A stretch of 60,964 nt of DNA from Eubacteriales bacterium (GCA_045594745.1 JAZNZC010000074.1:1-60964); one strand, 5' to 3'. Numbered from the stretch's first letter, positions 1 through 48,599 are shown. Notes: a model not told the origin generated them from the sequence alone. A program made the numbers and translations.

Positions 1-166
1 CCCCCTCCTGCACCCGAACGCTCCACCCTGCGCGCCAAAGGCGCGGACAGGGGGCAGAATTTCAAAAGAAATTCTGCCGACGAGAGCCGCAAGGCTCGAA
101 GTTTGTCGCATGGTTCGAGTCCTGTTTAATATTTAGTTGTCTTTTCCCTATCCCCAACGCCCCGCC

Positions 167-215
167 CCCCCTGAAAGACCGTGCAGTCTTTCTTTCCCCC
201 TTGCCCCCGAGGGGA
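167..215 (+). repeat. ~48-bp direct repeat, copy 1 (contains hairpin AAAGAC-cgtgca-GTCTTT)
   Basis: CCCCTGAAAGACCGTGCAGTCTTTCTTT..TTGCCCCCGAGGGGA recurs at 1514-1561 with one substitution; the two copies bracket the CDS at 320-1483. Confidence 0.8.
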
Positions 216-253
216 CTCAACGCTTCGATGATATTACAACAACAAATTGGTAA

Positions 254-282
254 TTGACGCGGCCTTGCTTTTGTTATATAAT
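254..282 (+). promoter_or_regulatory. sigmaA-type promoter of the XRE/TPR-like regulator gene
   Basis: TTGACG (254-259), 17-nt spacer, TATAAT (277-282); 38 nt upstream of the ATG at 320. Confidence 0.5.
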
Positions 283-319
283 AAGATTACACCGGTGAAA
301 CAAAATGTGAGGTTTTTAT

Positions 320-1483
320 ATGAACGTAAAAATAGGAAAACAAATCAAACTCTTGCGAAATCGTGATGGTGTAACACAAGATCGTCTTGCCGAGGCACTT
401 GGTGTTACAAGTCAAGCAATTTCAAAATGGGAAAACGAAATCGGATATCCCGATATCGAGTATGTTGTTCCGATTGCAAACTTTTTCAATGTTACAGTCG
501 ATGCGCTTTTTGAACACGACAGAAGCGAGACTGAAAGCAAGATCAATCAATATTGCGAAAAACTTGATGAAATGCATCGCGGGTGGGAGAATGTGAACTC
601 CCGCATTGATCTTGCGCGACAAGCTCTTGCAGAATTTCCCGCAGAGGAAAAACTGCTTGTTCGCTTGGCAACCGCTTTGTGGGAAAAATGGAGTAACGAG
701 GCATACAACGGTTGTTATTTGATTGTGGATGGAAAAGCTGTATATCATTTTGAAAAGGTAAGAGCAACCGAAGGTTGGGAAGAACCCGCTCAAATTATGG
801 AAAAGCTGCTTGCCACATCTGTCGACGATAAAATCAGAAGCGAGTGTCGAGATATTCTTATAAGATTGTATGGGGATATTGGAGAAAAGGAAAAAGTATA
901 TCGGCTTGCAGAATACTGCCCCGATTGCAAGGCTGCCAATTTATTTGCTGCTTTTAATGGAAAATACGATGACGAAGCAAGAAATAACAGTCAAGTCCTC
1001 TTGCAAGGCGGACTTTTCCGCTTGCTTGTGCATCTGCCGCGACAAACCAAAAATTCAGCCCTAAGAGCAAAAGCTTTTGAAAAGTTGATAGACTTGTATG
1101 CTTTCATATTTGATGATGGAAACTATGCGTTCTGCCACTGTAAAGTGGAAGAGTTGTATATTGATTACGCGGATGCTTTAATTGGGCAAGAGCGCTTCGA
1201 CGAGGCAATTTTTGCTCTTGAAAAAGCATACGAGCACGCCAAAGCTTTTGATGCTTATCTCGATCAACTTCGCGAGAATGGCGAAGTTTGTTATACGTCA
1301 ACCTTTACAGATACTCTCAAAGATCTTTCTGTGGATGTCTATGCCACAAAGGCAGTTCCGGAATTGTTGAACAAAGTGTTTATGGATAAGCGGGATACTT
1401 TCTATAAAAAACTCCATAAAGAGGAGAGATTTATCAATCTTGTGAAGAAAATCGAAAGTGATGTCGGCACATCTGCAAAATGA
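320..1483 (+). CDS. XRE-family HTH transcriptional regulator with long alpha-helical (TPR-like) C-terminal domain
   Basis: 387-aa ORF. N-terminus IGKQIKLLRNRDGVTQDRLAEALGVTSQAISKWENE is a classic HTH_3/Cro-C1 motif. GAGG RBS upstream. Confidence 0.85.
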   Translation: MNVKIGKQIKLLRNRDGVTQDRLAEALGVTSQAISKWENEIGYPDIEYVVPIANFFNVTVDALFEHDRSETESKINQYCEKLDEMHRGWENVNSRIDLARQALAEFPAEEKLLVRLATALWEKWSNEAYNGCYLIVDGKAVYHFEKVRATEGWEEPAQIMEKLLATSVDDKIRSECRDILIRLYGDIGEKEKVYRLAEYCPDCKAANLFAAFNGKYDDEARNNSQVLLQGGLFRLLVHLPRQTKNSALRAKAFEKLIDLYAFIFDDGNYAFCHCKVEELYIDYADALIGQERFDEAIFALEKAYEHAKAFDAYLDQLRENGEVCYTSTFTDTLKDLSVDVYATKAVPELLNKVFMDKRDTFYKKLHKEERFINLVKKIESDVGTSAK

Positions 1484-1513
1484 TTGTTATAGCAAAAAGC
1501 GTATTTACCACTC

Positions 1514-1561
1514 CCCCTGAAAGACCGTGCAGTCTTTCTTTTCCCCTTGCCCCCGAGGGGA
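1514..1561 (+). repeat. ~48-bp direct repeat, copy 2
   Basis: Near-identical to 167-215. Confidence 0.8.
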
Positions 1562-1709
1562 AAAACAAAAACACAAGTAGACAGTATTTTTCCAACCAAA
1601 CGGAGAATTTTAGGGTGTAAAATCTCCAAATGTTATCTTTACTTTCCAATGTTTAAGGTGTATAATATAGTTACAAAGTCGATTTTGAAAACAAATTTAG
1701 GAGATTGTT

Positions 1710-2288
1710 ATGTCTATTGGAAAAAACATTGCGCGTTTTAGAAAAGCCAAGGGATGGACACAAGCAGAGCTCGGTGAAAAAATTGGAGTATCCAATCAAG
1801 CTGTATCGAAGTGGGAGTCTGAAACAAGTATGCCTGATGTGATGCTTTTACCGGTGCTTGCTGATGCTTTTGGATGTTATGTAGATGAATTGTTTTCTCG
1901 AGAAGTAAAGACCGAAATTCATTATGACCATTGTGCGGAGTTCCCTTGGGCGGATGATAATACGATAAGGATTTTTCAAACCGTGGGCAAGAAAATTATG
2001 AAATCGCAAGAAGTTAACACCTGCATGGAAGTGACTTTCCCGCGAAATTGTAATGAAACGACCAGACAATATTTTAAGGTTGAGGTTTTGGGCAATCTTA
2101 TGTCTGATAGTAGCATAAACGGTGACGTTGTTTGCCACGGATATATTGATTGTCATGAAATAAACGGAGACGTTTCAGCGCAGGGCTCCATTACCGCATA
2201 CGAAATCAACAGTCACGGAAAAATTGTTTGCAACTCTCTAAAATGTGACAAGATCGAAGGCGATGTTACCATCAAACAAGTAGATTGA
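1710..2288 (+). CDS. XRE-family HTH protein with C-terminal bactofilin-like (INGDV repeat) domain
   Basis: 192-aa ORF with AGGAG RBS. N-terminus IGKNIARFRKAKGWTQAELGEKIGVSNQAVSKWESE. C-terminus has repeated INGDV/GSI/GKI beta-strand-like units resembling polymer-forming cytoskeletal (bactofilin) folds. Confidence 0.85.
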   Translation: MSIGKNIARFRKAKGWTQAELGEKIGVSNQAVSKWESETSMPDVMLLPVLADAFGCYVDELFSREVKTEIHYDHCAEFPWADDNTIRIFQTVGKKIMKSQEVNTCMEVTFPRNCNETTRQYFKVEVLGNLMSDSSINGDVVCHGYIDCHEINGDVSAQGSITAYEINSHGKIVCNSLKCDKIEGDVTIKQVD

Positions 2289-2318
2289 TAAAAAAACAGA
2301 TATTGTTATACACAAAAA

Positions 2319-2356
2319 GAAAGTCACGGTTGCGTTTTGCACCGTGGCTTTCTCTT
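2319..2356 (+). terminator. rho-independent terminator after the XRE/bactofilin-like gene
   Basis: AAGTCACGGT-tgcgttttgc-ACCGTGGCTT stem followed by a T-rich tract. Confidence 0.55.
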
Positions 2357-2406
2357 ATCTCTCCTTCAATTTATTTATCTCAAAATAAGTTTTTTGTTAT
2401 CTGTAC

Positions 2407-2435
2407 TTGTAAAAAGGATAAAGATATGATACAAT
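2407..2435 (+). promoter_or_regulatory. sigmaA-type promoter of the retron ncRNA-RT unit
   Basis: TTGTAA (2407-2412), 17 nt, TACAAT (2430-2435). The predicted TSS near 2442 coincides with the first base of the a1 repeat. Confidence 0.55.
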
Positions 2436-2441
2436 AAAAAC

Positions 2442-2673
2442 AGAACAACAGTGTATTTCGATTTTTTCGAAAGGGATGGCGAGTCGTCATCTTTTCACCC
2501 AAGGTTTAGCGTATTCGCTGCACAAGCCCTACAAAAGTCTTTCCGACGCGCGAGCACATCGGGACTTTTGCTCGGTCTTGCTTCGCTCAGTCGAAATGCT
2601 CGACGAAGTGATACAAGGCTCTGCCTTGTAGTACTACGTCTGCGCGTTTTGCCATACAAATTGGTGTTGTTCT
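2442..2673 (+). ncRNA. candidate retron msr-msd non-coding RNA
   Basis: Non-coding region directly upstream of the RT on the same strand. a1 AGAACAACA (2442-2450) is the exact reverse complement of a2 TGTTGTTCT (2665-2673). G2451 is a candidate branching G. Internal hairpins at 2456-2474, 2478-2494, CAAAAGTC/GACTTTTG (about 2532-2572) and ACAAGGC/GCCTTGT (2612-2628), plus the 10-bp palindrome GTAGTACTAC (2629-2638). Confidence 0.55.
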
Positions 2674-2697
2674 AATCATCGGGAAAGGAGTCGCTAT

Positions 2698-3609
2698 ATG
2701 ATCGTTTACAAAGAGCTTGCTTCTGTTGAGCAAGATTTGGGCTTTTCGGCAAAGACCCTTTACGGGCTCAGCAACAATCTTGAAAAGCATTATCACAACG
2801 TCCTCATTCCAAAGCGTGACGGCAGTAAACGAAAGCTCTCCGTTCCCGATTTGATTTTGAAAAGAGTACAAAAATCAATAGCAGATAACATCTTGGCGCA
2901 ATATCCTGTTTCAAAATATGCAAAGGCATATAAGGTCGGGAGCAATGTTCAGCGGAACGCTCAGCCGCACATTGGAAAGAAGAAGATTTTGAAGCTTGAC
3001 ATAGAAGGCTTTTTTGATCACATTCTGTATTCTCAAGTCAAGAATACCGTTTTTTGCGAAGAGAAATTTGCAGAGCCCATTCGCGTTCTTTTAACGATGC
3101 TTTGTTATTACAAGGAGTCGCTTCCGCAAGGTGCGCCCACCTCGCCTGCCATTACAAACATCATTATGTACGATTTTGATGAGACTGTTGGAGCGTTTTG
3201 CGACGAGAAGAAGATCGCGTATACGAGATATTGCGACGATATGACTTTTTCGGGCGATTTTGACGAGGGGGAAGTCATTGCTTTTGTAAAAGGGGAGCTT
3301 TGCAAGCTTGGTCTGTTTTTGAAAAATCGCAAAACGGCGGTTATTCCCGCAAGCAAGCGCCAAACGGTAACGGGAATTGTTGTAAATGAAAAACTCAATA
3401 TTACAAAAGAATATAAAAAGAAGATCCGCCAAGAGATGCACTACATTCAAAAATTCGGGTTGGATGAGCACATAAAGAGATGTGGAATATCGGATAGGGA
3501 GCAATACGTTCTGTCGCTGTGCGGAAGGATCGCTTTTGTACTGCAAACCACCCCAAACGACTGCGAGTTTTTGGAATACAAAAAAATCCTTGCCGAAAAA
3601 CGGTTATAA
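2698..3609 (+). CDS. retron-type reverse transcriptase
   Basis: 303-aa ORF with AAGGAG RBS. RT motifs seen: IPKRDGSKRKLSVP, LKLDIEGFFDHI, LPQGAPTSPAITN, YTRYCDDMTFS (YxDD box), and the retron-typical VTGIVVN after the thumb region. No maturase, endonuclease or other fused domain. Confidence 0.9.
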   Translation: MIVYKELASVEQDLGFSAKTLYGLSNNLEKHYHNVLIPKRDGSKRKLSVPDLILKRVQKSIADNILAQYPVSKYAKAYKVGSNVQRNAQPHIGKKKILKLDIEGFFDHILYSQVKNTVFCEEKFAEPIRVLLTMLCYYKESLPQGAPTSPAITNIIMYDFDETVGAFCDEKKIAYTRYCDDMTFSGDFDEGEVIAFVKGELCKLGLFLKNRKTAVIPASKRQTVTGIVVNEKLNITKEYKKKIRQEMHYIQKFGLDEHIKRCGISDREQYVLSLCGRIAFVLQTTPNDCEFLEYKKILAEKRL

Positions 3610-3612
3610 AAA

Positions 3613-3648
3613 GAAAGCCACGCGACTATCGCGCGGCTTTTTCTTTAT
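3613..3648 (+). terminator. terminator-like hairpin after the RT gene
   Basis: AAGCCACGCG-actat-CGCGCGGCTT (one mismatch) followed by TTTTC. Confidence 0.5.
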
Positions 3649-3697
3649 CCCATCTTCAACTTTTTACATCCCTATATAAATTTTTATGTGTTCACAC

Positions 3698-3726
3698 TTG
3701 CAAAAAGAATACAGATATGCTAAAAT
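3698..3726 (+). promoter_or_regulatory. sigmaA-type promoter of the small TM gene (paralogous to the promoter at 2407-2435)
   Basis: TTGCAA (3698-3703), 17 nt, TAAAAT (3721-3726). The surrounding ~45 nt are near-identical to 2406-2450. Confidence 0.55.
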
Positions 3727-3754
3727 AAAAACAGAAACAAGAAAGGAGAACAAT

Positions 3755-4084
3755 ATGAAAAAAGTGATCTCGTGGGTGCTTTTTATATTAACGGTGGCTA
3801 TCTTTTTGTTTGATATATACTTTGCAATTACGGGAACGATTGAAGTCGATCTTCAACTGGATAGAATTAAGGAGATGGGCGGCAGCGGAGTTGATTTTTT
3901 GGGGGTTGGGGTAGAAATTTTGGCAATGGGGATTGCTTTGCTTACCTTTGTGGGATTGATTTTCTCTATCCTTTCTGCAATGCTCGCGCAAAAGCGTGTA
4001 ATCAAAATCATATCCTTTGTTCTCATCTTTTTATTTGTTTTTGTTCCGTTCTTTTCTTATGGCTTTTATTTGTTTATAGCATAG
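3755..4084 (+). CDS. small multi-pass membrane protein (putative retron effector)
   Basis: 109 aa starting at MKKVISW with AAGGAG RBS. About 3 hydrophobic helices (VISWVLFILTVAIFLFDIYFAI, ILAMGIALLTFVGLIFSILSAML, IISFVLIFLFVFVPFFSYGFYLFI). The longer ORF from 3686 lacks an RBS. Confidence 0.8.
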   Translation: MKKVISWVLFILTVAIFLFDIYFAITGTIEVDLQLDRIKEMGGSGVDFLGVGVEILAMGIALLTFVGLIFSILSAMLAQKRVIKIISFVLIFLFVFVPFFSYGFYLFIA

Positions 4085-4086
4085 AA

Positions 4087-4120
4087 GAAAGCAGACCGTG
4101 GTGGTCTGCTTTCTTTTTTA
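4087..4120. terminator. bidirectional terminator hairpin between the TM gene and the GH30 gene
   Basis: GAAAGCAGACC-gtggt-GGTCTGCTTTC followed by TTTTTT. Confidence 0.65.
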
Positions 4121-4149
4121 TATCAAACGATAATTTGAAATTTCAAATC

Positions 4150-5514
4150 TTACAAAATCACCGTCATCATGGAGTGAGGTTGCATGGTGAGCTTGGTGCA
4201 AACGTCGTTGTGTCTTACAACGGCGGGGAGCTCGCGGTGAGAGGTGCTCATCATAACGAGGACGATGCTGCCGTCGGGGTTCTTGAAGGCGACGGTGTAA
4301 ATGTTTTCGCTATATCGGGTGGTAGCGATACGCACGGCACCGCGTTGCACGAACTTGGAAAAATGCCCGATGTAATAGTAAATGGGAGTGAAAACAAGCT
4401 CTTTGGTTTCGGTGTTGTAAAGGATGGGTGCGTGGCAGCCTGCCGCCTTGTCCTCAAAAACAATTCCCGCAACCGCGGTGGTGCCTGCGGAACGGTTGTG
4501 GAAGGGCCCGCCTTTTTCGCTCAGCAAAAGGTTCCAGTCGCAAAGCCCTGCTGTAAAGTTGTTAAAGTCGCCGCACAGCTCTTTGCCGTATCTTTCGGCA
4601 AGAGAGATGGGGTCCTCGTTAATAGATCCGCAGTTTTCGGTGCTGAGCAAAACCTTGCCGAACTTTTCGTGCACAAGTCTCATGCCGTCAAAGTGGTTGC
4701 CCGAATACCAGTGGTGGCCAACCGCCCAAACGCGATCCTCGACCGCTTTGGAAGAGAAGATCTTTTTGGTACGGTCATAAACGCGCTCTTTGTTGTGGTC
4801 CCAAATAATGATCTTGATGTGGGAAAGTCCCTCGTCATCAAGAACAGGGGAGAGATATTTTTCAATGAACTCGCGCTCGTCATCGGGGGAGTAATAGCAG
4901 CTCTCCCAGGATTGGCGCGCGATGGGCTCGTTTTGAATGGAGATGGCGGAAATGGTAACGCCCTCTTCTGCCATCGCCTTGATGTACTTTGCGTAATATC
5001 TTGCCCAGCACTCCTTGTATTCTTCTTTCAGGGAGCCACCGCGGAAAACGCTTTCATTATCTTTCATAAACGCAGGGGGACTCCAAGGGGATGCGAACAG
5101 AACGAGCTCATCTTGGCAATACTTCATAGCATCCTTAATAAAGGGAATGATGTATTTTCTGTCGCGCTCGAGCGAGAAAGTTTTCAGCTCCTTGTCGCCG
5201 CTTTCGATGTAAGAATAAACGTCGAGAGAGAAGTCGCAGGAGTTGATGTGCGTTCTACCAAAATTGTAGCCGATGCCATTTTCGCGCGAGAAATAACTCT
5301 CCAAAAAGAGCTTTTTCTGCTCGTCGGTAAGCTGTGCATAATTGTAAGCCGCCGACTCGGTAAAAGCGCCGCCAAAGCCCAAAATGCTTTGATATTCAAA
5401 CTCGTCAAACACGTTGATAACGCCCATTTCGGTTTTTTCGGGGGCGTTGCCTGCTTCAACGGTCGTCTCCTGAAAATAAAGGTTCTCGGACGGAACGGAT
5501 GTAAAGATCTTCAT
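4150..5514 (-). CDS. glycoside hydrolase family 30 (glucosylceramidase-like)
   Basis: 454 aa. Motifs FGGAFTESAA, SPWSPPAFMK, ISIQNEP and HHWY are typical of GH30. AAGGAG RBS. No signal peptide. Confidence 0.9.
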   Translation of the reverse strand: MKIFTSVPSENLYFQETTVEAGNAPEKTEMGVINVFDEFEYQSILGFGGAFTESAAYNYAQLTDEQKKLFLESYFSRENGIGYNFGRTHINSCDFSLDVYSYIESGDKELKTFSLERDRKYIIPFIKDAMKYCQDELVLFASPWSPPAFMKDNESVFRGGSLKEEYKECWARYYAKYIKAMAEEGVTISAISIQNEPIARQSWESCYYSPDDEREFIEKYLSPVLDDEGLSHIKIIIWDHNKERVYDRTKKIFSSKAVEDRVWAVGHHWYSGNHFDGMRLVHEKFGKVLLSTENCGSINEDPISLAERYGKELCGDFNNFTAGLCDWNLLLSEKGGPFHNRSAGTTAVAGIVFEDKAAGCHAPILYNTETKELVFTPIYYYIGHFSKFVQRGAVRIATTRYSENIYTVAFKNPDGSIVLVMMSTSHRELPAVVRHNDVCTKLTMQPHSMMTVIL

Positions 5515-5550
5515 ACGGTTGCTCCTTTTGCGGTTGTTTTTGATATTTTC

Positions 5551-5579
5551 ATATTATCATATATAGAAGAAAAAGTCAA
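5551..5579 (-). promoter_or_regulatory. sigmaA-type promoter of the GH30 gene
   Basis: Minus strand: TTGACT (5579-5574), 17 nt, TAATAT (5556-5551). Confidence 0.5.
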
Positions 5580-5853
5580 GATGAAAGTGCAAAATTGTTG
5601 CAAAGCCGCAACTATTTGCGCCGGCCTATCCGTTCAGGATGACATACAGAGGTTTTACTTATTGGTATGTTTTAGATGCAAGCGGGGCGTCGAGGACGTC
5701 GCCCCCTACAAAAGTTGCTTTGAATCAATCGCGAAAAGCAATTTACATTTTTTATAAAACCAAAAAACGCGCGAAATGATTGATTTCTCGTAGGGGACGA
5801 CGTCCTCGACGTCCCGTAAAAACAACCGCATCTCACAAAACAACCAATCAACA

Positions 5854-6111
5854 TGTCATCCTGAGCGAAAAAATCGCAGTGCGATTTTGCAGTCGAAGTT
5901 CTGCGGGTTGAGCGTGAGCGAACAAGCAGAACCGAGGAGCGAATGCGACGATGGGATCTCTAAACGAGTTTGGGTGGCTTGCCAAAGAAAATGTTACATC
6001 CCATCAAAAAGTCACCAAGATTTGTAGCGAGATTCCTGCCAAACGCAAAGCGTTTTTTGGTTCTCACCTCGTTCCTCACTCGGCGAAACTTCGACTCCGC
6101 TCAGGATGACA
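5854..6111. repeat. 258-bp MITE-like element with perfect 14-bp terminal inverted repeats
   Basis: TGTCATCCTGAGCG (5854-5867) and CGCTCAGGATGACA (6098-6111) are exact reverse complements. Internal modules recur at 52327-52420, 54769-54910 and 55975-56057. Confidence 0.6.
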
Positions 6112-6220
6112 TACGGATTTTTTATTTATTTGCATGTGTTAGAAGCAGGGGGAGTAAGCTTCTTTGGTGAACAATGTTGAAACAAAAGGAACTTTCCTCT
6201 TGTAAATATTTCCTTCAATC

Positions 6221-6249
6221 TTGACACGTTCCTCCATTTATGCTATAAT
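6221..6249 (+). promoter_or_regulatory. consensus sigmaA promoter of the membrane-protein/GH2 operon
   Basis: TTGACA (6221-6226), 17 nt, TATAAT (6244-6249). Confidence 0.6.
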
Positions 6250-6272
6250 AAACGAAAGAAAGGCGGTGCGAA

Positions 6273-6662
6273 ATGAGAAACATTCTTGACAAACTGTTTG
6301 AAAACAAAAAGCTCGCGTTTTGGTTTCCAATCGCTTTTGCTGCGGTAGCATATTTGCTGTTTGCTTTGTTTGGGGTATCCGAGAACAAAGGCGAGGATCT
6401 TATTGTTATGCTTATTGTGAGCATAGGTTGGTTTTTCGGTGTCTTTCTTATTACCTTCTTTCAGGTGAAGAACCCTATGTGTCCCGAAAAGTTTTTGGAC
6501 TTTTTTGAACTGATGGCAATTGTTGTTTTTGTTTCGTGCGCTCTGGTGAATATGATCACGTTTTTCATCAACGGCTTTCAAGATTTGGGTGTTATTTGCC
6601 CCGGAGCAGTTACATACAGTGCCGTTGCTTGGGCGCACAGCAAAAGAGAAAAAAATAATTGA
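6273..6662 (+). CDS. small integral membrane protein (about 4 TM), unknown function
   Basis: 129-aa hydrophobic ORF, 34 nt upstream of and co-oriented with the GH2 gene. Confidence 0.7.
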   Translation: MRNILDKLFENKKLAFWFPIAFAAVAYLLFALFGVSENKGEDLIVMLIVSIGWFFGVFLITFFQVKNPMCPEKFLDFFELMAIVVFVSCALVNMITFFINGFQDLGVICPGAVTYSAVAWAHSKREKNN

Positions 6663-6696
6663 TAAAGAATAACAGATAAATAATAGGAGAAAAATT

Positions 6697-8448
6697 ATGA
6701 GCAACATTCCAAGATGTGAGCATCCCCGTCCCGACAGATTGCGCCAAGATTGGGTCAACCTCAATGGCGTATGGGATTTTGAAATTGATAACGCCAAGGT
6801 TGGCTTGGAAAAGAAATTTTACGAGAGAGGCAGCCTTGATCAAAAAATAAACGTTCCGTTCTCGCCCGAAACGGTTCTGTCAGGCATTGGACACACCGAT
6901 TTTATGAATGCGGTTTGGTATCGCAGAAATGTTGACATTCCCGCAGAGTGGGCTGGCAAGCGTGTGATCTTGCACATCGACGCCTGCGACCACACCACGC
7001 GCGTGTTTGTCAACGGCAAATCGGTAGGAGATCCGCACAAGGGTGGCTACACGTCCTTCTCTTATGATATCACCGACGCGCTTTCCCAAAAGGATAACTA
7101 TATCACGATTTATGCCGAGGATGACATTCTTTCGGGTAAGCAATTTGCGGGCAAGCAGTCCACAAAGCTGAACTCTTACGGCTGCTTCTACACGCGCACC
7201 ACGGGCATTTGGCAGACCGTTTGGCTCGAAGCAGTCGAGGCGGCACACGTCCTCTCCTACAAGGTTTACCCGAACATTTCAAAGCCCTCGGTTGTTATCG
7301 AAACCGCGACTGTTGGCACGCAAAGCGACGACACGTTGTGCATAAAAGCCTATTTTGAGGGAAAACTGATGGGTTCTGCCACCACAAAAATGGCATCTGC
7401 AACCACGGTTATGGAAATTGACCTTGCCGAAGCACACCTTTGGGAATGCGGTAACGGAAGACTCTACGATCTTGTTTTCGAGCTGACGTCGGGCGAAAAG
7501 GTTGACGTGATGAACGGCTACTTCGGCTTGCGCGAGGTCAAATTGACAAAAGAGAAGGGCCTTGAGATCAACGGCAAGACCGTTTTCGGTCGTTTTGTTC
7601 TCGACCAAGGCTTCAATCCCGAGGGAGTTATCACGGCTCCTACGGATGAAGCACTCAAGTTCGATATTGAAGCCTCGATGGCTTGCGGATTTAACGGCGC
7701 ACGCCTGCACCAAAAGGTGTTTGAGCCTCGTTTCCTTTATCACGCCGACAAGCTCGGCTACATGGTTTGGGCAGAGGCAGGCAACTGGGGCTTCGACCAC
7801 ACCAATTTTGCCAATCTTGAAAACTTTTTACCCGAGTGGCTTGAGGAAATGGAGCGCGATTTCTCGCACCCGTCTATCATTGGCTGGTGTCCTTTCAACG
7901 AGACGTGGGAGCGAAACGGACATCCGCAGAGCATCGCGCTCATCGATGCCGTTTATGACATCACCAAAGCGATCGACACCACGCGCCCCGTTGTTGCAAC
8001 GAGCGGCTCGTTCCCGACGACACGCACCGACGTTCACGACGTGCACGACTACGAGCAAGATCCAGCCCTGTTCCGTTCTTATTATGCGGAAATGGAAAAG
8101 GGCATCGCGCGCGATCAGCTTCACAGATTAAATTCGCATCGCCAGGTCTACAAAACAGAGCTGCCCGTATTTATGAGCGAATACGGCGGCATCCGTTGGG
8201 TTATGGACAACGACAACGCAGGCTGGGGCTACGGTGCATCCGTTCTCAGCGAGGACGAATTCTTCACGCGTCTTGAGGGGCTCACCGATGCTCTCCTCGA
8301 AAATCCGCATTTCTTCGCATTCTGCTACACCCAGCTCACCGACGTGGAACAAGAACAAAACGGTCTGCTTACCTACGACCGCCACTTCAAATTCCCTGCC
8401 GAGAAGTTTGCGAGAATCTTTAGCAAAAAGTCTGTTATAGAAAAATAA
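6697..8448 (+). CDS. glycoside hydrolase family 2
   Basis: 583 aa with GGAG RBS. Candidate acid/base WCPFNE and nucleophile MSEYGG motifs. The N-terminal sugar-binding region is paralogous to the C-terminal part of the 56254-59250 product. Confidence 0.9.
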   Translation: MSNIPRCEHPRPDRLRQDWVNLNGVWDFEIDNAKVGLEKKFYERGSLDQKINVPFSPETVLSGIGHTDFMNAVWYRRNVDIPAEWAGKRVILHIDACDHTTRVFVNGKSVGDPHKGGYTSFSYDITDALSQKDNYITIYAEDDILSGKQFAGKQSTKLNSYGCFYTRTTGIWQTVWLEAVEAAHVLSYKVYPNISKPSVVIETATVGTQSDDTLCIKAYFEGKLMGSATTKMASATTVMEIDLAEAHLWECGNGRLYDLVFELTSGEKVDVMNGYFGLREVKLTKEKGLEINGKTVFGRFVLDQGFNPEGVITAPTDEALKFDIEASMACGFNGARLHQKVFEPRFLYHADKLGYMVWAEAGNWGFDHTNFANLENFLPEWLEEMERDFSHPSIIGWCPFNETWERNGHPQSIALIDAVYDITKAIDTTRPVVATSGSFPTTRTDVHDVHDYEQDPALFRSYYAEMEKGIARDQLHRLNSHRQVYKTELPVFMSEYGGIRWVMDNDNAGWGYGASVLSEDEFFTRLEGLTDALLENPHFFAFCYTQLTDVEQEQNGLLTYDRHFKFPAEKFARIFSKKSVIEK

Positions 8449-8456
8449 GGAATGAT

Positions 8457-8492
8457 TGTGGGGGAAACTTCTTGCAAGAAGTTTCCCCCACA
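8457..8492. repeat. 36-bp perfect palindrome (GTGGGG..CCCCAC family)
   Basis: TGTGGGGGAAACTTCTTG/CAAGAAGTTTCCCCCACA; every base pairs with its mirror partner. Confidence 0.85.
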
Positions 8493-8655
8493 CCCCTTTC
8501 AAGAACTCTCGCACAAAAATTATCTAAATAGAGTTGTTAGTGCACTAACGGACAGTCGGCGCGAGGGGAGGGGATAAGAGTGCAGAGTGCAGAATGCAGA
8601 GTGAATATCAACCGGTAGGGCGGGAGCAAGCCCCCGCCCTACTTTTTAGAAACCA

Positions 8656-8684
8656 TTGACATTTTCGCGCAAGAGTGGTATAAT
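8656..8684 (+). promoter_or_regulatory. consensus sigmaA promoter of the GH78-like gene
   Basis: TTGACA (8656-8661), 17 nt, TATAAT (8679-8684). Confidence 0.6.
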
Positions 8685-8713
8685 AAAGAAAAGCAAAAAG
8701 GAGGAATCTGACA

Positions 8714-11086
8714 ATGATATTCTCTCAAAAGTTCATATCCTTTTCAAGAAAAACGTGCACCTTAAACGATTGGGTTGCCGCCCCCTATATGCGCCGCGAT
8801 TTCAATCTTTCAACTCTTCCCCAAAAGGCAGAGCTGACCGTTTGCGCGCTTGGCTTTTACGAGCTGTTTGTCAATGGAAAGAAAATAACAAAAGGGCATC
8901 TTTCTCCCTTTATCGTCAACCCCGATCAAGTGTTGCCCTATGACACCTACGACGTTACGTCTTTGCTTTGCGAGGGCGATAATGTTATTGCCTTTATTCT
9001 TGGCAACGGTATGCAAAACGGTTTTGGCGGATTTATTTGGGATTTTGACAAAACCTCTTTTCTTTCCGCTCCCAAGCTCGCCTTTGCGCTGGAGCTTACC
9101 ACAGGTGATGAAAAAACGGTGATCGAAGCCGATGAAAATGTTCGTTGCCACCCCTCTCCCATTGTGTTTGACGATCTGCGTTACGGTGAAAAATACGATG
9201 CAAACAAAGAGGTTGCAAATTGGAATTTGGTTGGCTGCGATCTTTCAAATTGGACACCGCCCATTCATCGAAGCTGCAATCGAGGCGATGCAATTCTTTG
9301 CGACAACCGTCCCATTGTCGCCACGGGTGAATTAAAGGCTGTTTCCATCACGCCCGTCGATGGCGGATACCTTTACGATTTTGGTGTCAACATTGTTGGT
9401 CTGACGCGCCTTTCCATCAAGGGAGAGGCAGAACAGCACATCGTCATTGATCACAGCGAGATGTTGGAAAACGGAAAGATATGCTTCAAAAGCATTATGT
9501 TCGACCGCCCGCACCTGGCACATCTTAACCCTTACGTACAACGCACCGAATACATCTGCAAGGGTGAGGGCGTTGAAGAATACATCCCCCATTTTACCTA
9601 TTACGGCTTCCGATACGCCTACGTTACGGGCATCGAAGCACATCAGGCAACGGTCGATCTTTTGACCTGCGTGGTGATGAACACCAAGCTTGGCGACAGA
9701 GGAAACTTCCATTGCTCCGATGAAACTCTGAACAAATTGCAGGGGATGACGCGTCGCTCCACGCTTGGCAACTTCCAGCATTTTCCCAACGACTGTCCTC
9801 ACCGCGAAAAGAACGGTTGGACGGCTGATGCGGCACTTTCTGCCGAGCAGACACTCCTCAATTTCGAGCCCGAGGATAACTACCTGATGTGGGAAAAGTG
9901 CATCGTTCGTGCAATGAACGAGCAGGGAGCGCTCCCCGGCATCGTGCCCACGGGCGGATGGGGCTTCCACTGGGGCAACGGCCCTGCATGGGATAGTGTG
10001 CTCATCTATTTGCCTTATTTTACGGCGGTTCTGCGCGACGACTTGCGCGTGGCAGAGGCGGCAAAAGAGGCGATGGTGCGCTATTTTCGCTACCTGACCT
10101 CGCGTCGCGATATCCGCGGACTGCTTGAGATCGGACTTGGTGATTGGTGCCCCGCAAATCCCGATTACACAACACCGCTTATTTTTACCGATAGCACCAT
10201 CGCTTACGATCTCGCCGTCAAGGCGGCGTACCTTTACGACCGTATGGAAATGCCTGAGGAAGCGGACTATTGTCGCAATTTTGCAACCGAAATGCGCGCC
10301 GCCATCCGCAAGCATCTTTTGGAGGATGCCGATACGATGCGCTTTATCAGCGGACGTCAATCGGTTCAATCGATGGCGATCTATTACGGTCTTTGCGACA
10401 ACGAGGAAGAAAAAGAAAAGGCACTTGCGATCCTTCTCGACGAGATCCACAAGCAAGACGACCACATGGGTGTTGGCGTGCTTGGCGGACGTGTCATCTT
10501 CCGTGTGCTTTGCGACAACGGCTACGAGGATCTCGCATTCAAGATGATCACGCGCCCCGATCCCCCCTCTTACGGCGTTATGATCGCCGATGGCCTGACC
10601 ACGCTTGCCGAGAACGTAAGAGAGCCCTACGGTTCGCTCAATCACCATTTCTGGGGTGACATTTCGGCGCTGTTCATCGAATATTTCGCGGGCATCCGTC
10701 CCAATCCCGACCTGCAAAATGCGGCGAATATCAATATACGTCCTGTATTTCCTTCCACTTTGCAGAGCGCAAAAGCCTATTATAAGGCTACCTCGGGCCG
10801 CGTTGAGGTGTCTTGGGAGAGAGAACCGGATTGCGTGAGAATGAAATTGACTTATCCCGCAGGCGCCAAGGGCTTTGTGATTGCTCCCCGCGGATACGTT
10901 GTAAACGGACGCGAAAAGGCCAAAGCCGAGAGCGGAACGTATGTTTTCTTGCCGCCCGACAAAGCAAGTCTGCCGCGAAGATCCATCGATTTTGTTCTCC
11001 ACAACCGCATTACACGAAGAATTAAGAGAGTTTTGAAAAACACCATGGGAATGGAAAAAAGCTCTTCTCAAAAAGAAGAAAACTAA
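8714..11086 (+). CDS. GH78-like alpha-L-rhamnosidase family protein
   Basis: 790 aa with AGGAGG RBS. DCPHREKNGWTADA resembles the DCPxRE+xGW motif of the GH78 six-hairpin catalytic domain. No signal peptide. Confidence 0.8.
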   Translation: MIFSQKFISFSRKTCTLNDWVAAPYMRRDFNLSTLPQKAELTVCALGFYELFVNGKKITKGHLSPFIVNPDQVLPYDTYDVTSLLCEGDNVIAFILGNGMQNGFGGFIWDFDKTSFLSAPKLAFALELTTGDEKTVIEADENVRCHPSPIVFDDLRYGEKYDANKEVANWNLVGCDLSNWTPPIHRSCNRGDAILCDNRPIVATGELKAVSITPVDGGYLYDFGVNIVGLTRLSIKGEAEQHIVIDHSEMLENGKICFKSIMFDRPHLAHLNPYVQRTEYICKGEGVEEYIPHFTYYGFRYAYVTGIEAHQATVDLLTCVVMNTKLGDRGNFHCSDETLNKLQGMTRRSTLGNFQHFPNDCPHREKNGWTADAALSAEQTLLNFEPEDNYLMWEKCIVRAMNEQGALPGIVPTGGWGFHWGNGPAWDSVLIYLPYFTAVLRDDLRVAEAAKEAMVRYFRYLTSRRDIRGLLEIGLGDWCPANPDYTTPLIFTDSTIAYDLAVKAAYLYDRMEMPEEADYCRNFATEMRAAIRKHLLEDADTMRFISGRQSVQSMAIYYGLCDNEEEKEKALAILLDEIHKQDDHMGVGVLGGRVIFRVLCDNGYEDLAFKMITRPDPPSYGVMIADGLTTLAENVREPYGSLNHHFWGDISALFIEYFAGIRPNPDLQNAANINIRPVFPSTLQSAKAYYKATSGRVEVSWEREPDCVRMKLTYPAGAKGFVIAPRGYVVNGREKAKAESGTYVFLPPDKASLPRRSIDFVLHNRITRRIKRVLKNTMGMEKSSSQKEEN

Positions 11087-31659: not shown

Positions 31660-31859
31660 TAGGGAGAGCTTTTTATTTACAAAAAAGTTAAGAACGGGAT
31701 GCTTCTTGACAGAACAATGAGCCGCGGTGGCAACTTTCGGATTGTTTGTTACAAACGAATGAAATAAAATAACTGGTAGGGGACGGCGCCCTCGACGTCC
31801 CATTTTATTGCTAACAACCCTATTTAGATATTTTTTGTTTAGAAAGTTCCTGAAGGGGG

Positions 31860-48013: not shown

Positions 48014-48599
48014 GTTGTCACCACCTTTCAATTTATTATAACATAGATAGCAAGCCGTGTCAATAGAAAAATGCAGAATGACAGGATGACTGTTTGGTTT
48101 GCTGCTTTTCGGAGCGCTAAGAATGTCGCATCCCTACGAGGAATCTTTCCCTTGGCTCATCAACAATCTATCATTTTAACAAAATCTTGCGTGTGCTAAA
48201 ATTACACAAGGTAAACAACTTTTGTAGGGGGCGACGTCCTCGATGCCCCGCCAACAAACGAATACCGCAAATAAAAACGGGCGATTCGTGAATCGCGCCG
48301 ACGGTGAATATTAAATTTGCGGTAGGGGACGGCGCCTTCGACGTCCCACAATAACAGAAAAATATCATTGTAGGGCGACCATTGTGTTCGCCCGTACCAA
48401 AGTCAAACAACTTTCTTAGCGGATAGGGTCTTGGCGGGTCTCGCTGCGGCTCGGTCACGCTCGGGCTCTGACACCACACCGTGGTGTCATTCACTCCCCT
48501 CGCGCCGCTTCGCCACCTAGCCGCTCGCGGCAGCCAAAGCCGGTTGTTGGTATATAACTTTTTAGGCGGCGGGAGCAAGCCCCCGCCCTACTGTGTATG

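Follow-up and report, generated by a model that had tools for sequence, protein, structure and literature searches.

The stretch of DNA analysed here (the window) is 60,964 nt long and comes from an Eubacteriales bacterium (GCA_045594745.1 JAZNZC010000074.1:1-60964); positions are given in window coordinates. Near its left end it contains a putative retron, made up of a structured non-coding RNA (ncRNA) followed by the gene for a reverse transcriptase (RT). On the same strand, genes for two helix-turn-helix (HTH) proteins, HTH387 and XRE192, precede this pair and a gene for a small membrane protein, TM109, follows it. Genes for two glycoside hydrolases, GH30 and GH2, lie beyond. The window was compared with homologous loci, which carry L numbers; the 45 species-representative genome loci with the RT made up the main comparison set. 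The hosts of these are nearly all gut or rumen metagenome-assembled genomes of Clostridia (Eubacteriales, Oscillospiraceae) or a few Bacilli, the exceptions being one Marinilabiliaceae contig and one Prevotella contig. Proteins were searched with the PADLOC, Pfam, and NCBIfam profile libraries, and structures were explored through PDB matches, an AlphaFold model, and Foldseek. An earlier reading of this DNA (the original prediction) had described a retron-like locus, and both the hidden Markov models for the RT and the covariation of the ncRNA agree with this. The parts of the putative retron are as follows.

2343-2445, + strand: promoter-containing element, copy 1, upstream of the ncRNA (scan; 76% identical to 3632-3736)
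2442-2673, + strand: retron ncRNA (msr-msd), 232 nt including the a1 and a2 arms (fold, covariation in 38 sequences)
2442-2450, + strand: a1 arm, AGAACAACA (exact complement of 2665-2673)
2451, + strand: candidate branching (priming) guanosine, an unpaired G directly 3' of a1
2456-2472 and 2473-2493, + strand: two conserved msr hairpins, likely RT recognition elements (helices 98% paired)
2523-2580, + strand: variable middle hairpin (covarying helices, large indels at the tip)
2592-2664, + strand: long msd hairpin (2592-2651) and a short stem to G2664, predicted template of the multicopy single-stranded DNA (msDNA) (covariation)
2665-2673, + strand: a2 arm, TGTTGTTCT (pairs with a1; ends 24 nt before the RT ATG)
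2698-3609, + strand: retron RT, 303 aa, no fused domain (profiles, motifs, family)
3614-3640, strand unassigned: terminator hairpin closing the putative retron cassette (scan; L001/L009 homology stops at 3646)

The 303-aa protein possesses the RT motifs IPKRDGSKRKLSVP, LDIEGFF, LPQGAPTSP, YCDD, and VTGIVVN. It also carries NAQPH, which is of the NAxxH type, and TVTGIVV; NAxxH and VTG are retron-specific RT signatures. Pfam identified RVT_1 only, with no maturase, endonuclease/nuclease, Cas, or other fused domain. In PADLOC, the best model was RT_Ec107-like (E 1.6e-127, 423 bits, profile positions 7-305 of 307). The second-best group was RT_III-A (E 9.5e-103, 342 bits), so that the RT can be separated between the Ec107-like and type III-A profiles at 423 versus 342 bits. 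Other retron RT types rank after these two, and the 25 best matches listed were all retron RT models. In NCBIfam, retron_St85_RT was found at 3e-64 as against 2e-18 for a group II intron RT, with Drt2 and Drt3a weaker. Among solved structures (PDB), the 14 best matches were all retron RTs, with Ec86 first at 1.8e-29. The motifs and coordinates given originally for this gene, the lack of a fused domain, and the claimed affinity to retrons rather than to group II or DRT enzymes are all in agreement with these searches.

The family to which the RT belongs comprises 5738 clusters (E <= 1e-20). Of the 53 members recovered, 50 keep YCDD, 48 keep NAxxH, and 50 keep VTG. An intact open reading frame (ORF) was found in 34 species-level loci at 69-94% identity, with a few further loci at 45-58%, and no frameshift or loss of a catalytic residue was seen. 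The 303-aa protein is a retron-clade RT of the Ec107-like branch.

The ncRNA upstream of the RT has the a1/a2 geometry that was originally proposed for it, with exact repeats in the two positions named. These arms are 9 nt long and 100% complementary in the window. The 262-nt leader folds with a minimum free energy (MFE) of -85 kcal/mol (z -3.4 against dinucleotide shuffles, 1 of 200). By a rough estimate, the number of perfect 9-mer inverted repeats expected by chance in 232 nt is ~0.1, so that a single one is not rare alone, and the case for the ncRNA therefore rests on conservation. An alignment of 38 distinct sequences (A1, 297 columns) was taken from the region upstream of the RT in every locus. 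RNAalifold on A1 returned the a1/a2 helix, the two msr hairpins, the variable middle hairpin, and the tip of the long 3' hairpin. Pairs were counted by mapping the window's own MFE structure onto A1, with partners slid by 1-3 columns and 500 shuffles as controls. Over 80 pairs, 87.2% of cells were paired, compared with 38-46% when the partners were slid. Changes on both sides were found in 32 pairs, of which 16 come from the long hairpin at 2592-2651; the shuffles gave 18.5 +/- 2.2 (0 of 500 reached 32) and the slid partners 10-22. The covariation proposed as a check on the arms and hairpins exceeds both controls, and these compensatory changes point to selection on the structure.

The a1/a2 helix itself is paired in 99.7% of cells of A1 and is nearly invariant in the close clade. 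In four distant loci, the arms differ from those of the window and still pair: L043 (a1 AATGAACGATA, a2 TATCGTTCATT), L044 (a1 GTGGAACA, a2 TGTTCCAC), L045 (a1 ACAAAGACAG, a2 CTGTCTGTGT), and L047 (a1 GCGGAACA, a2 TGTTCCGC). The msr hairpin loop GCGAGTCG is kept in L043, L044, and L047 while its stem changes. L043 and L045 have shorter ncRNAs that lack the middle hairpin (2523-2580), and in this extra variable hairpin the window's ncRNA differs from its own distant relatives.

The G at position 2451, originally proposed as a candidate branch point, does lie directly 3' of a1. It is a G in 37 of the 38 aligned sequences, and its counterpart in the distant loci L043-L047 is the G of TAG(C); in both cases the preceding base is A. 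The first templated base next to a2 is G2664. Published branching guanosines have an A-G context, and the first templated base beside a2 is usually G (10.1101/2024.01.25.577267). Thus, G2451 is a candidate branching primer that is consistent with the published context. A 74-aa ORF inside the ncRNA (2451-2675) was also considered as coding. It was rejected on the many indels of its homologues that are not multiples of three and on the paired compensatory changes.

Promoters were identified by a consensus scan. The promoter before the ncRNA is TTGTAA-17-TACAAT with a TG extension at 2407-2435 (-35 box at 2407-2412, -10 box at 2430-2435), and 6 nt separate its -10 box from a1. Of the 41 loci listed, 32 have a TAnnnT box with its end 6-8 nt upstream of a1, including loci in which the DNA further upstream is unrelated. 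This position indicates that transcription starts at the beginning of a1, as was originally predicted for the promoter at 2407-2435. A terminator hairpin was also found after XRE192 (2328-2349).

From these parts, the working of the element can be proposed. A sigma-70-type promoter at 2407-2435 would start the transcript at ~2441-2442. The transcript would hold the 232-nt msr-msd RNA and then the RT ORF, and would end at the hairpin at 3614-3640. The ends of the RNA would pair through a1 (2442-2450) and a2 (2665-2673). By homology with studied retrons, the RT would bind the two conserved msr hairpins (2456-2493), prime from the 2'-OH of G2451, and copy the msd from opposite G2664 through the hairpin at 2592-2651, possibly further. 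The predicted product would be branched msDNA. By analogy, the biological role is probably phage-related, either with an unlinked partner or via the RT-msDNA complex itself.

The limits of the element can be read from its relatives. Three blocks of window DNA are found in L001: 215-1545 (L001 2547-3875), 2345-3646 (3882-5185), and 4117-5680 (5183-6744). The two stretches absent from L001 are 1546-2344, which holds XRE192, and 3647-4116, which holds TM109. More distant loci match the window at the DNA level only over the ncRNA and RT, from 2424-2443 to 3454-3613. A filled and an empty site are also available. Between GH30 and GH2, a 1386-bp block in L055 (5156-6541) replaces 22 bp of L058 (4909-4930), and this block holds the promoter element, the ncRNA, the RT, and the terminator. 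No obvious target-site duplication was found at this filled-empty pair. Together, the cassette limits and the filled/empty comparison indicate a minimal retron unit at varied intergenic sites. Positions 2343-3646 thus appear to form a self-contained minimal retron cassette of ~1.3 kb, which occupies different intergenic sites.

Genes in the neighbourhood of the RT were examined by all-against-all ORF clustering within 4 kb of the RT in RT-bearing loci, at strict and relaxed thresholds. Beyond the RT, no recurrent gene family was found in this range, save for a group linked by a generic HTH in 11 loci. About 30 of the 45 genome loci have no homologue of TM109, XRE192, or HTH387. In the closest relatives (L001, L002, and L009, with RTs 93-94% identical), the HTH387 gene lies directly before the RT and the GH30 gene directly after it, and both XRE192 and TM109 are absent. 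Tightly linked downstream genes of ten other loci gave no significant defence match in PADLOC; their Pfam matches were LRR, ZIP transporter, ankyrin, and MoxR-like AAA with DUF2201. It appears that no protein effector belongs to the retron unit.

The locus is therefore read as a minimal Ec107-like retron cassette (RT clade 2 of Mestre et al. 2020) with no effector gene and with XRE192 and TM109 as unrelated neighbours. We give this reading a probability of roughly 0.85. Ec107 (Retron-Eco5) belongs to RT clade 2, in a branch of 59 RTs without any associated protein cluster, and this branch shares a node with the RTs linked to a phosphoribosyltransferase (PRTase), type III-A (Mestre et al. 2020, PMC7736814). 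In the SPIRE survey, 'clade2_Ec107like' is the second most abundant retron group in metagenome-assembled genomes (n = 192); these retrons are abundant in gut Bacillota, lack accessory genes, and are the group most strongly host-associated (bioRxiv 10.64898/2026.05.14.725207). Clade 2 retrons were among the highest RT-DNA producers in an experimental census in E. coli (10.1101/2024.01.25.577267). The window's element resembles this lineage in its best RT model (RT_Ec107-like, full length), in a unit of promoter, msr-msd RNA, and ~300-aa RT only, in having no recurrent accessory gene, and in its gut-associated Bacillota hosts, the last two as published for the branch. The synteny analysis reproduces the published accessory-free picture of the lineage. 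Since that lineage is already published as gut-Bacillota and accessory-free, the locus is a further member of a known lineage. The gene set had been thought new or poorly described for a Clostridia retron, and in this respect the original prediction was overtaken by the accessory-free gut-Bacillota Ec107-like retrons already described (PMC7736814; bioRxiv 10.64898/2026.05.14.725207).

The element differs from Ec107 in several ways. Its hosts are uncultured Oscillospiraceae/Eubacteriales and not E. coli, the cassette is found at several intergenic sites of one glycosidase locus, and the window has a duplicated promoter element. In addition, the msDNA of this member is a prediction. Ec107 itself is reportedly a 1.3-kb element that replaces a short intergenic sequence (Herzer et al. 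1992). The replacement of 22 bp by 1386 bp in L055 relative to L058 resembles that arrangement. The locus provides a clean and well-delimited example of the effector-less Ec107-like retrons; the window and its relatives supply exact limits (2343-3646), a covariation-backed ncRNA, and natural empty and filled sites. It reveals no new retron type, effector, or partner domain, and it corrects an attractive but wrong assignment of two neighbours.

The locus does not appear to be a type III-A, IV, or VI system. Type III-A retrons possess a PRTase-like effector and a winged-helix protein (e.g. Retron-Eco11, PMC12746101). Theirs is the sister RT group, with RT_III-A second in PADLOC at 9.5e-103. However, no PRTase-like or winged-helix match was found in Pfam or PADLOC among the four flanking window proteins and ~20 neighbour proteins elsewhere. 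The likeness to types IV and VI lies in the neighbouring genes, which are listed here with the second copy of the promoter element.

320-1483, + strand: HTH387, HTH_3 with a TPR-like C-terminus (directly upstream of the retron in the closest relatives)
1710-2288, + strand: XRE192, HTH_3 regulator with a beta-rich C-terminal domain, apparently a neighbour and not part of the retron (HTH_3 E 8.6e-15)
3632-3736, + strand: promoter-containing element, copy 2, the native TM109 promoter (direct repeat with 2343-2445 around the ncRNA and RT)
3755-4084, + strand: TM109, 109 aa, ~3 transmembrane (TM) segments, apparently a neighbour and not part of the retron (ATG at 3755 preceded by a ribosome-binding site)

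HTH387, or XRE-type HTH proteins in general, could be the true accessory partner, in which case the retron would be type VI-like or under a dedicated repressor. In L001, L003-6, and L009, which have two different downstream flanks, the HTH387 gene immediately precedes the retron on the same strand, ~420 nt from the RT. Weak full-length homologues of HTH387 (26-30% identity) adjoin the RT in L007/8/46 and L023, and HTH_3 genes adjoin it in L015, L018, and L024. PADLOC HTH_VI also matches the HTH domains at ~1e-8 to 1e-9. However, these matches span the generic 60-residue domain only, and most loci lack HTH387, the close relatives L010-L013 and L055-59 among them. The window and roughly a quarter of the related loci have XRE-type HTH genes in the vicinity of the RT, a likeness to type VI. 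The HTH proteins here are 192-404 aa long (192 and 387 in the window), with varied C-termini, and are not conserved, and no 75-79 aa auxiliary gene is present. RT_VI scored 1.4e-52, against 1.6e-127 for the Ec107-like model. Type VI, in contrast, consists of a 91-110 aa Cro/C1 HTH protein, a 75-79 aa auxiliary protein, and a clade 3 RT, so that its partners are small and unlike HTH387 (PMC7736814).

Clusters of XRE-type HTH genes with varied C-termini were observed elsewhere, with three in a row in L001 (1148-3816) and four in L066 (1960-7520). The four in L066 lie within 7.5 kb and have no RT, and XRE genes are very common in Clostridia. With genes this abundant, adjacency to the retron is weak evidence of a functional link, and an HTH partner is judged improbable. 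HTH387, whose C-terminal half has weak TPR matches, is the commonest neighbour of the retron in close relatives; it is possibly a local regulator, but most loci do not have it. The two copies of a 49-nt repeat at 167-215 and 1513-1561, which are 98% identical (CCCCCTGAAAGACCGTGCAGTCTTTCTTT.CCCCTTGCCCCCGAGGGGA), flank the HTH387 gene and give weak sub-threshold whalefall-1 Rfam matches on the minus strand.

Somewhat less probable again is a tripartite retron, with TM109 as an abortive-infection membrane effector of the type IV (Ec48-like) kind and XRE192 as a regulator or third component, as the original prediction proposed. The genes are adjacent in the window and on the same strand. The gene for the 109-aa protein and its own promoter (TTGCAA-17-TAAAAT, 3698-3726, consensus scan) were found to be present downstream of the RT, as described originally, and by eye the protein has three hydrophobic stretches. 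As this promoter is part of a 76%-identical copy of the ncRNA promoter element, co-regulation is conceivable. In addition, TM109 homologues lie within ~2.5 kb of the RT in L010, L055-57, and L059, and XRE192 is directly upstream of the retron in L011 also. Type IV (Retron-Eco6/Ec48) combines an RT with a 2-TM effector, to which a small multi-TM protein beside the RT bears a superficial likeness.

Against this, both genes are missing in L001, L002, and L009, whose RTs are 93-94% identical, and ~30 of the 45 genome loci have no homologue of TM109, XRE192, or HTH387. In the 45 genome loci, a TM109 homologue was found only in L010, 1.9 kb upstream of the RT and beyond the GH30 gene. In every locus that holds GH30, with or without a retron, TM109 is just upstream of GH30 and convergent with it. 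A convergent GH30 gene stands between TM109 and the retron in L010, L055-57, and L059. TM109 also occurs without the RT, beside GH30 in L058 and in an unrelated context in L061/62. Among 5.8 billion proteins, TM109 has a family of only 20 clusters, compared with 5738 for the RT, a more than 100-fold gap, and a metagenome scan with TM109 gave a single short locus. Searches of Pfam, PADLOC, and NCBIfam gave no family match for TM109. For the RT, the 25 best PADLOC matches listed include no type IV model. Ec48 is placed in RT clade 3 (PMC7736814). TM109 is thus not syntenic with the RT in related genomes, an outcome named beforehand as refuting, and the effector role given to it is not supported.

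XRE192 fares in a similar way as a regulator or third component: it is absent from L001 and L009 and occurs without the RT in L063-66. Its family has 1693 clusters. Among the 45 genome loci, full-length homologues were found in L011, L012, and L023. Without a retron, it is found in the order XRE192, GH30, GH2 in L063-65 and in an unrelated context in L066. Its N-terminus is a clear Cro/C1 HTH. The C-terminal part is conserved, rich in beta structure, and contains repeated INGDV motifs; in the AlphaFold (AF2) model the C-terminus is all-beta, with a predicted local distance difference test score (pLDDT) of 70-86. The HTH part of the fusion originally described for this protein stands, and the bactofilin-like part is weakly supported. 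No Bactofilin (PF04519) match was found in Pfam for the window's XRE192. A 37%-identical homologue (L023) has a sub-threshold match (E 1.3e-5, 25.8 bits versus a cut-off of 27.9). Foldseek against PDB (E <= 0.001) matched the HTH domain only, with no bactofilin among the 50 matches listed. XRE192 and TM109 appear to be a resident gene pair of the GH30/GH2 glycoside-hydrolase locus, with the retron in their intergenic spacer.

That the RT is not of a retron (group II intron, diversity-generating retroelement, Abi, or UG/DRT) or that the element is an inactive relic is very hard to credit: the weak secondary matches to group II RT (2e-18), Drt2, and Drt3a and a catalytic box of YCDD where YADD is usual in retrons stand against retron models 45-100 orders of magnitude ahead, no maturase, endonuclease, or extra domain, YCDD as the family norm (50/53) with NAxxH and VTG kept, an ORF intact at 69-94% identity in 34 species-level loci, and the compensatory changes of the ncRNA.

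Several points weigh against the reading as a minimal Ec107-like retron with unrelated neighbours. About one locus in four has an XRE-type HTH gene close to the RT, which would leave room for a loose regulatory link. TM109 shares a promoter element with the ncRNA and is within ~2.5 kb of the RT in four of six informative contexts. The covariation of the a1/a2 helix comes mostly from the four distant loci, with the helix near-invariant in the close clade. Rfam, searched at E <= 1 on 1-9000 and over the whole window at the gathering threshold, returned neither a retron family nor any other meaningful match, and holds no model matching the retron ncRNA; the weak whalefall-1 and miRNA-like matches correspond to repeats and hairpins. 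msDNA from this element is predicted from the genes and the RNA. In addition, effector-less retrons have no established function, which makes the output step of the proposed mechanism a conjecture.

The promoter-containing element can possibly explain how the retron came to lie between XRE192 and TM109. It is ~105 nt long and includes the -35 box, the TG-extended -10 box, and the first ~10 transcribed bases, AAAAACAGAA(A)CAA. At 70-83% identity, it is common to the retron ncRNA, the TM109 gene, and a gene for an RHS-repeat protein (382 aa). It accompanies the retron in L001-L015 and L055-59, and the 61-kb window has only two copies. Three copies were found in L010, before TM109 (1333-1441), before the ncRNA (3322-3422), and after the RT ahead of the RHS-repeat gene (4608-4699); those of L013 are at 899-999 and 2790-2881. 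The sharing of this element suggests that it may be the target of a common regulator or a substrate for recombination.

In L059, the XRE192 and TM109 genes are directly adjacent, with a single terminator-promoter spacer and one copy of the promoter element, and the retron lies beyond GH30. Positions 1965-2096 of L059 align twice to the window, to the sequence ending at 2445 and to that starting at 3610. This double alignment indicates that the window is the L059 gene pair with the ncRNA, RT, and terminator inserted at the TM109 promoter and the spacer duplicated. Recombination at the shared promoter element would explain this arrangement. A broader proposal is that the Ec107-like retron is a mobile cassette of ncRNA and RT without an effector, which relocates between spacers by homologous recombination via the ~105-nt element that it shares with resident genes (TM109, RHS-repeat), and that a Campbell-style integration at the TM109 promoter left the repeat 2343-2445/3632-3736. 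This is a tentative proposal and on balance a doubtful one. If true, promoter-element recombination would be a concrete route for the spread of minimal 'orphan' retrons, and the ncRNA and a few host genes would share one promoter and operator.

Other features of the locus were observed. The left edge of the XRE192 indel relative to L001 and L009 (1546) falls inside the second copy of the 49-nt repeat around HTH387. In L044 (7927-9570) and L047 (1730-4167), whose RTs are 53-55% identical to the window's, a homologous gene pair flanks the RT. One gene of the pair encodes a MoxR-like AAA_3 ATPase (369 or 376 aa); the other encodes a DUF2201 protein, in which metallopeptidase-like and VWA domains are present. 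The pair is downstream and overlaps the RT stop in L044 and is upstream in L047, and is possibly an accessory module belonging to a sister sub-lineage, seen in two loci only.

A 540-aa ORF on the + strand (4135-5757) runs antisense to the GH30 glycosidase gene (4150-5514, minus strand) and is a shadow of it, not a gene in its own right. The GH30-GH2 spacer has a 142-nt near-perfect hairpin at 5679-5820. Its arms (GCGGGGCGTCGAGGACGTCGCCCCCTAC) recur in the window at 31776-31801 and 48216-48251, which indicates a dispersed repeat resembling repetitive extragenic palindromes (REP-like), and this hairpin accounts for the spurious miRNA-family matches in Rfam. A 129-aa hydrophobic ORF (6273-6662, + strand) is also present between GH30 and GH2 and has no NCBIfam match. 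Counterparts were found in L001 (127 aa) and L009 (131 aa), and it is absent from the spacer of L058, which indicates that it is another small variable cassette of the locus.

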